Part shown: piece after piece, positions 34,441 through 35,219 of the stretch
How the letters are laid out: the number at the start of each line of letters is the position of its first letter
Position numbering within the stretch: position 1 is the first letter of the stretch
DNA from: Escherichia coli
GTDB lineage: Bacteria > Pseudomonadota > Gammaproteobacteria > Enterobacterales > Enterobacteriaceae
Assembly: GCF_003334385.1 (NCBI RefSeq)
Contig: NZ_QOWN01000006.1
Reading direction: 5' to 3' (one strand)
DNA: 64,000 nt
Made by a program: the position numbers and the translations under genes
Notes under the pieces: generated by a model
What the model was told of the DNA's origin: nothing
Database searches by the model: none
The model's input: the letters and a program-made list of their open reading frames with translations, nothing else

Positions 34441-35219
34441 TATTCCCACCCAGAATAACCAACTTTATTTTTATGCGGTTTCACCGCACCCCGTGATGTC
34501 GCCGGGAAGCCCCGGTAAAAAATAATTAGCATTAGAATAGTTGCGATAAGCTGCAATAAGCAGAACCACCTTTTTGGTTTAATATGTCCTTACAAATAGA
34601 AATGGGTCTTTACACTTATCTAAGATTTTTCCTAAATCGACGCAACTGTACTCGTCACTACACGCACATACAACGGAGGGGGGCTGCGATTTTCAATAAT
34701 GTGTGATGCAGATCACACAAAACACTCAATTACTTAACATAAATGTATAAGTCATACTTTTGTTTTGGGTGTATTTCAATCTGTTAAAAAGTTTTTCGCT
34801 ACGCTAGCAAGCAAAAATGAAACAGGAATAATCGAAATGGGATGTTGCGCACAGTCAAAATAACTCACCGTAAATAATCATCTGCTATAAATAATCACTT
34901 TCATGCAATACCAGATAAGCTATTTTTAAACAGACACTTACCGCACAACAAACTAATTAAATACAAAGAAAGGCAACAATCAACTTAATGTTAATGAAAT
35001 GTTTTACATATATTAACCACTTGTTTAATGCGGAGAATCAGTACACTATTTTCTTATAATTACATTTGAAATTATATGATCACCGGGAGTGATTGATTAA
35101 TTGTCTTTACTAATAATCAGGCTAATATTTACCTGTTTGACCGAGTTGGGATTGCGTCGTTTCTCCATTAGGAGTAAAGCTTTAATGTCACCTGAAGTTC
35201 ACAGAATAAGGAACAGGTT
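34441..35219 (-). promoter_or_regulatory. flhDC leader and promoter region, AT-rich, no IS insertion
   Basis: About 780 bp with no ORF of any size resembling a transposase; long AT-rich tracts. Confidence 0.7.
34702..34717. promoter_or_regulatory. CRP binding site in the flhDC promoter
   Basis: tgtgatgcagatcaca is a perfect TGTGA-N6-TCACA palindrome about 260 bp upstream of the flhD ATG. Confidence 0.8.

Follow-up and report, generated by a model that had tools for sequence, protein, structure and literature searches.

In K-12 lineages, motility is raised by IS1 and IS5 elements that insert between about −96 and −476 relative to the flhD start (PMC5100188, PMC11237407), and IS insertion as far upstream as −476 stimulates flhD expression (PMC5100188). 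The locus described here raised the question of whether the region upstream of flhDC is uninterrupted in the window, a stretch of 64,000 nucleotides of Escherichia coli DNA that was analysed as a whole, and of how its CRP site compares with that of the K-12 strains. The flhDC control region, its CRP site and the activating IS insertions are ordinary features that are already known and well characterised. What is added here is the distribution of the alleles at position 34702 of the CRP site, in which K-12 and B are in the minority.

The flhD-uspC gap and its strain background

According to the open reading frame list, flhD on the minus strand (34090-34440, 116 amino acids, ATG at 34438-34440) and uspC on the plus strand (35220-35648, 142 amino acids, ATG at 35220) are separated by a gap of 779 bp at 34441-35219, so that the boundaries and the length of about 780 bp given by the first-pass annotation were exact. 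The flhC gene (33509-34087, minus strand) is located downstream of flhD, and the gene order is motA, flhC and flhD on the minus strand, the gap, uspC on the plus strand, and otsA. The RefSeq annotation of near-identical genomes agreed with the flhD and uspC coding sequences, and placed the genes in the same order with an identical flhD start. The FlhD and FlhC proteins were identical to those of MG1655; UspC had Q62 in the window and H62 in K-12.

The similarity of the window to K-12 was examined by alignment. Positions 1-51,000 differed from MG1655 by only 14 SNPs. Three of them, at 34702, 35103 and 35121, were the only differences between the gap and the MG1655 region without its IS1H, compared with an expected number of 0.21 (Poisson P = 0.0014). 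Together with a fourth SNP at 35405, which lies in uspC and corresponds to the Q62/H62 difference, they formed a cluster at 34441-35405. Past approximately 51019, the divergence from MG1655 climbed from about 0.03% to 1-2%, in the uvrY-yecU/yecF-sdiA interval, and this alignment pattern suggests a recombination boundary at about 51019. Furthermore, the centre of fliC (57854-58833) did not align with K-12 H48, and an identical fliC allele is carried by E. coli 1303 and by many isolates from pigs, cattle and humans. Since the fliC is not that of K-12 and the right flank is diverged, the window comes from a natural phylogroup A relative of K-12 and not from a laboratory K-12 strain. ATCC 8739 shared the rare G at 35121, but had 16 mismatches and two indels in 6 kb. 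Taking these data together, we are highly confident that the gap is the native divergent control region of flhDC and uspC in a natural phylogroup A E. coli near K-12.

The RNA genes of the window were as in K-12. They included MicL inside cutC (14684-14991), C0465 (28982-29059), the MotR region placed by MG1655 coordinate transfer (33451-33545), the leuZ-cysT-glyW tRNA cluster (47285-47584), and two ES036 matches (10706-10748 and 57470-57511).

Intactness of the flhDC upstream region

The first-pass annotation had described the gap as intact and free of IS, with neither a transposase-like open reading frame nor terminal inverted repeats. No open reading frame of at least 60 amino acids was present in the open reading frame list at 34441-35219, where only two frames of 40 amino acids were found. 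A sensitive blastn search revealed no IS1H similarity within the gap, and the terminal repeats of IS1, IS2, IS3, IS5, IS10, IS30, IS150 and IS186 were absent from it at a mismatch tolerance of approximately 20%, with the IS1 ends taken from MG1655 and generally known end sequences used for the other seven families. The repeats in the region were short and at chance level only, and none of them resembled IS ends.

Alignment with MG1655 and W3110 had been proposed as a way to find IS junctions. MG1655 aligned to the window in two blocks, which met at IS1H (MG1655 1978503-1979270) and overlapped by exactly 8 bases, CATAAATG, at window positions 34738-34745, about −100 to −107 from the flhD start. 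This octamer is duplicated around IS1H in MG1655 and was present as a single copy in the window, where it represents the empty IS1H target; the IS1H flanks of MG1655 thus meet in the window with no IS between them. The corresponding MG1655 region (NC_000913.3 1978198-1979752) had the same flanking genes, FlhD and FlhC, leader, promoter hexamers and AsflhD, and was distinguished by the IS1H of 768 bp with its 8-bp duplication at 34738-34745, by C instead of T at 34702, and by A instead of G at both 35103 and 35121. The IS-free K-12 strains, W3110 (NZ_CP165600.1) and BW25113, whose parent carries the native flhDC promoter locus (PMC11237407), had the uninterrupted 779-bp gap as the window did, but departed from it at the three positions at which MG1655 does, so that their CRP half-site is imperfect as well. 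The statement that laboratory K-12 lineages carry IS1 or IS5 insertions which raise motility was borne out by the literature and by the IS1H of MG1655; the W3110 assembly examined was uninterrupted.

To place the gap within the species, its 779 bases were searched by megablast against complete E. coli genomes. They were found in 5,422 of 5,426 genomes, almost always as one colinear piece with no annotated feature beneath it. All 779 bases aligned as a single piece to thousands of IS-free genomes in which flhD and uspC are divergent, and the best matches were 99.9% identical, with one mismatch at 35121. Strain 300709 (NZ_CP025903.1), a natural phylogroup A strain, was one such case: it had the 779-bp gap, the perfect CRP core and no annotated feature in the gap, and differed only by A at 35121, where the window has G. 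The gap was also 779 bp long in IAI1 (B1), ST131 (B2), O157:H7 (E) and the phylogroup A representatives, and 778 bp long in ATCC 8739 and LR-03. No deletion in the gap relative to the phylogroup A, B1, B2 and E representatives was observed. An IS repeat, a transposase fragment or a deletion had been named beforehand as evidence against an intact region, and none of the three was found. The gap contains no transposase frame, no IS terminal repeat and no target-site duplication, and no IS1 or IS5 lies in the interval about 96-476 bp upstream of the flhD start, in which the activating insertions occur.

The frequency of interruption was then estimated with a 500-bp query spanning −52 to −551 from the flhD start and a joining limit of 750 bp, which is too short to bridge IS1. 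The query occupied 5,594 places in 5,421 genomes, corresponding to approximately 170 genomes (3%) split by a large insertion, a count estimated from the numbers of blast places and not from genome-by-genome inspection; in 5,338 genomes, a single place accounted for 80% or more of the query. The interrupted genomes included many that were either IS1-bearing K-12 derivatives or strains of the NCM3722 type with a Tn3-family element. Hence, the uninterrupted gap is the norm in nature, in roughly 96% or more of the 5,421 complete genomes. The window does represent the uninterrupted regulatory architecture, as had been proposed, and it shares this condition with about 96% or more of the complete genomes.

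In the clinical isolate g1-11 (NZ_AP040965.1, 3089-3880), IS1 lies beside flhD with ftnA immediately after it, and everything from uspC to yecR (otsBA, araFGH, ftnB and azuC) is deleted. This deletion is apparently IS1-mediated and begins in the flhDC upstream zone.

An intact gap may also be reached secondarily, when a former IS has been precisely excised or when the region has been restored by engineering. Precise excision leaves no scar, and populations that mix IS-bearing and IS-free cells are reported for K-12 stocks (PMC11237407). However, the haplotype of the window occurs, bar one SNP, in many wild isolates of human, porcine, bovine and canine origin, and the non-K-12 fliC and the diverged right flank indicate a natural strain. 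We thus consider a secondary origin very improbable. Since about 96% of the genomes are uninterrupted, the ancestral state is the simplest reading of the intact gap.

The variable sites of the gap were concentrated at 34991-35140, within an AT-rich distal upstream zone (34741-35140, 28-33% G+C); this zone is where IS elements are known to land, and no other part of the gap varies as much. The identity to ST131 was 91.8% in the distal zone and 99% in the block containing the promoter and the CRP site; across phylogroups, this block was 99-100% conserved in the strains compared. The distal zone may have a role in the binding of H-NS or repressors. By transfer from K-12, these 400 bp of AT-rich DNA farther upstream would act as a silencing zone, the disruption of which by IS1 or IS5 would account for the raised flhDC expression in laboratory K-12. 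Since the silencing zone is unbroken in the window, flhDC should be under normal repressed, catabolite-controlled regulation.

The uspC-proximal segment (35141-35219, plus strand) was conserved, with one variable site among seven strains and 98.7% identity to both ST131 and O157. It presumably contains the uspC promoter and leader, with AAGGAA as the putative ribosome-binding site.

The G at 35121 was found in 5 of 5,426 genomes, which belong to unrelated haplotypes (ATCC 8739, LR-03, N61, an O157:H7 and a pig isolate). It supplies the inner pair of the inverted repeat formed by AATCAGG (35115-35121) and CCTGTTT (35132-35138), and a recurrent mutation templated by this quasi-palindrome could lie behind the homoplasy. 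A terminator-like hairpin on the minus strand at 35118-35135 was not deemed a terminator, given its poor T tract.

The flhD promoter, leader and CRP site

The K-12 flhD start at MG1655 1,978,395 was transferred by alignment to 34638 in the window, leaving a 5' untranslated leader of 198 nt at 34441-34638 (minus strand). A core sigma-70 promoter could be read off the sequence at 34645-34673 on the minus strand, with −10 TACAGT (34645-34650), a 17-bp spacer and −35 TTGTAT (34668-34673), and its spacing fits the K-12 start, a G at 34638. These hexamers are presumed to be the flhD promoter on the basis of the K-12 promoter. As in K-12, flhDC would be transcribed leftward from this weak promoter, starting at 34638. 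A consensus promoter scan of 34300-35400 detected zero sigma-70 sites. The flhD promoter, which is known from experiments, was missed because its hexamers score 8 of 12 and the threshold of the scanner was 9, so the negative scan is uninformative for weak, activator-dependent promoters.

The antisense RNA AsflhD was placed at 34418-34638 on the plus strand by transfer from MG1655 1,978,175-1,978,395 (PMC9600491), where it is annotated as b4839 from 1,978,176, and its span was identical in sequence to that of MG1655. The flhD mRNA has its 5' end where AsflhD has its 3' end, at MG1655 1,978,395 (PMC9600491). Rfam reported nothing in the gap, neither at the gathering threshold for the whole window nor at E ≤ 1 for 34300-35400, and it has no AsflhD model. 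The flhD leader is targeted by small RNAs (PMC3634460). By analogy with K-12, in which CsrA and several small RNAs are known to act on it, the 198-nt leader of the window would be targeted by small RNAs and by AsflhD.

Upstream of the promoter, the core of a predicted CRP site, TGTGATGCAGATCACA, was located at 34702-34717, within a 22-bp site at 34699-34720. The first-pass annotation had called it a perfect CRP palindrome. Its position was correct, its 6-bp arms TGTGAT and ATCACA pair without a mismatch, and each half-site fits TGTGA-N6-TCACA perfectly; however, the 16 bp are not a full palindrome, as the central GCAG is not self-complementary. The 22-bp site matched the consensus at 15 of 22 positions in the window and at 14 of 22 in K-12. 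With the core centred at 34709.5 and the start transferred from K-12 at 34638, the site is centred at −71.5. The position −71.5 is one of the class I CRP positions, in the series −61.5, −71.5, −82.5 and −92.5 (PMC11894529). The half-site match and the centre near −71.5, as counted from the K-12-transferred start, are as expected of a class I CRP promoter. For flhDC of K-12, binding of cAMP-CRP and dependence of transcription on crp and cya are known (PMC3634460). Like lac, with its site at −61.5, the region has one CRP dimer site, which precedes the −35 hexamer on the same helical face, here at −71.5; unlike lac-type class I promoters, the flhDC promoter lies within a long AT-rich silencing region and has many other regulators. 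The flhDC half-sites are nearer to the consensus than those of lac. If the K-12 mechanism holds in this strain, cAMP-CRP bound at −71.5 would activate flhDC in the class I manner, via the C-terminal domain of the RNA polymerase alpha subunit.

Short motifs do arise by chance, and the 16-mer could in principle be a coincidental consensus match without a regulatory role. The TGTGA-N6-TCACA core occurred twice in the 64-kb window, whereas 0.09 occurrences were expected from shuffles. In addition, the site lies exactly at a class I position, its core was invariant in the phylogroup A, B1, B2 and E representatives, and it is the base-for-base counterpart, bar one SNP, of the K-12 region that is activated by cAMP-CRP (PMC3634460). 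We give next to no credence to a chance match, and the site is read further on as a CRP site of flhDC.

The only other perfect core in the window, TGTGATACAAATCACA, was at 43509-43524, just upstream of azuC/azuR (azuC frame at about 43341-43427, minus strand) and opposite yecR. Its centre precedes the annotated 5' end of azuR by approximately 48.5 bp. AzuCR is CRP-regulated, and TGTGATACAAATCACA is probably its known CRP site.

A one-base difference in the CRP site between the window and K-12/B

In the half-site nearer the promoter, position 34702 is the outermost base. The window has T there (TCACA), whereas K-12 and BL21 have C (TCACG), the latter allele being present in MG1655, W3110, BW25113 and BL21. 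The description of the site as perfect therefore holds for the half-sites of the window, whose allele is that of the majority, and does not hold for the sequence of K-12.

To count the alleles, 35-mers were centred in such a way that every megablast seed covers the variable base, and the 5,388 genomes that hold the CRP site served as the denominator. The window allele with the perfect core was found in 4,483 genomes and the K-12/B allele in 415; a spacer variant, 34708 G>A, in which the half-sites are still perfect, was found in 272, and approximately 220 genomes had other single differences in the 35-mer. TCACA, as the window allele or the spacer variant, was thus present in at least 4,755 of the 5,388 genomes. 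Among the matches listed, the genomes with the K-12/B allele were mostly laboratory derivatives, with a few natural isolates. All phylogroup A, B1, B2 and E representatives examined had T at 34702. A perfect CRP core is what E. coli normally carries, and it is the K-12 and B laboratory strains that deviate. Judged from the phylogroup distribution, T at 34702 is the more frequent state and is probably ancestral. A scan of species-representative genomes for an outgroup with ATGNGTGATGCAGATCACAC gave two chance matches, in Pedosphaera and Aeromonas, and no Escherichia locus, and a full-text literature search for the sequence of the CRP site returned no paper.

The spacer variant 34708 G>A marks a third haplotype of 272 genomes (ETEC6333, AST215 and 300444 among them). 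In the three genomes inspected, 34648 G>T turns the −10 TACAGT into TAAAGT, and 34664 T and 34724 G were also present.

The anatomy of the region, its colinearity, the absence of IS, the pattern of conservation and the frequencies of the alleles were observed directly; a functional role of the base at 34702 would go one step further. The T may be a meaningful regulatory variant, which would give better CRP binding than TCACG and higher flhDC expression than in IS-free K-12 under catabolite-derepressed conditions. In its favour, 34702 is position 19 of the 22-bp site and lies inside the conserved TCACA, which raises the consensus score by one over K-12; TCACA predominates over the 415 K-12/B-type genomes; and the gap holds 3 of the 14 SNPs in 51 kb. 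However, positions 4 and 19 of CRP sites matter less than positions 5, 7 and 8, where the G and A contacts are made, and the lac CRP site also deviates at position 19. Moreover, intergenic DNA gains SNPs faster anyway, and the C allele is also carried by natural isolates and is thus not obviously deleterious. We hold a functional T to be less likely than not.

A further step would be that the TCACG of K-12 and B is a derived, weakened form of the species-wide perfect site, which helps to make IS-free K-12 poorly motile and so adds to the strong laboratory selection for upstream IS insertions. This we regard as doubtful. With 14 SNPs in 51 kb, the window offers a near-isogenic natural comparator of K-12 with the presumably ancestral CRP site.

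As a discovery, the intact gap carries little weight, since an uninterrupted region is the natural norm. What is of use is a practical point about the CRP site. K-12-based regulatory models and binding-site collections contain a flhDC CRP site that is one core base off that of about nine-tenths of E. coli genomes. K-12 and B, the two main laboratory lineages, have the minority allele in common, which calls for caution when the motility regulation of K-12 is extrapolated to wild and pathogenic strains.
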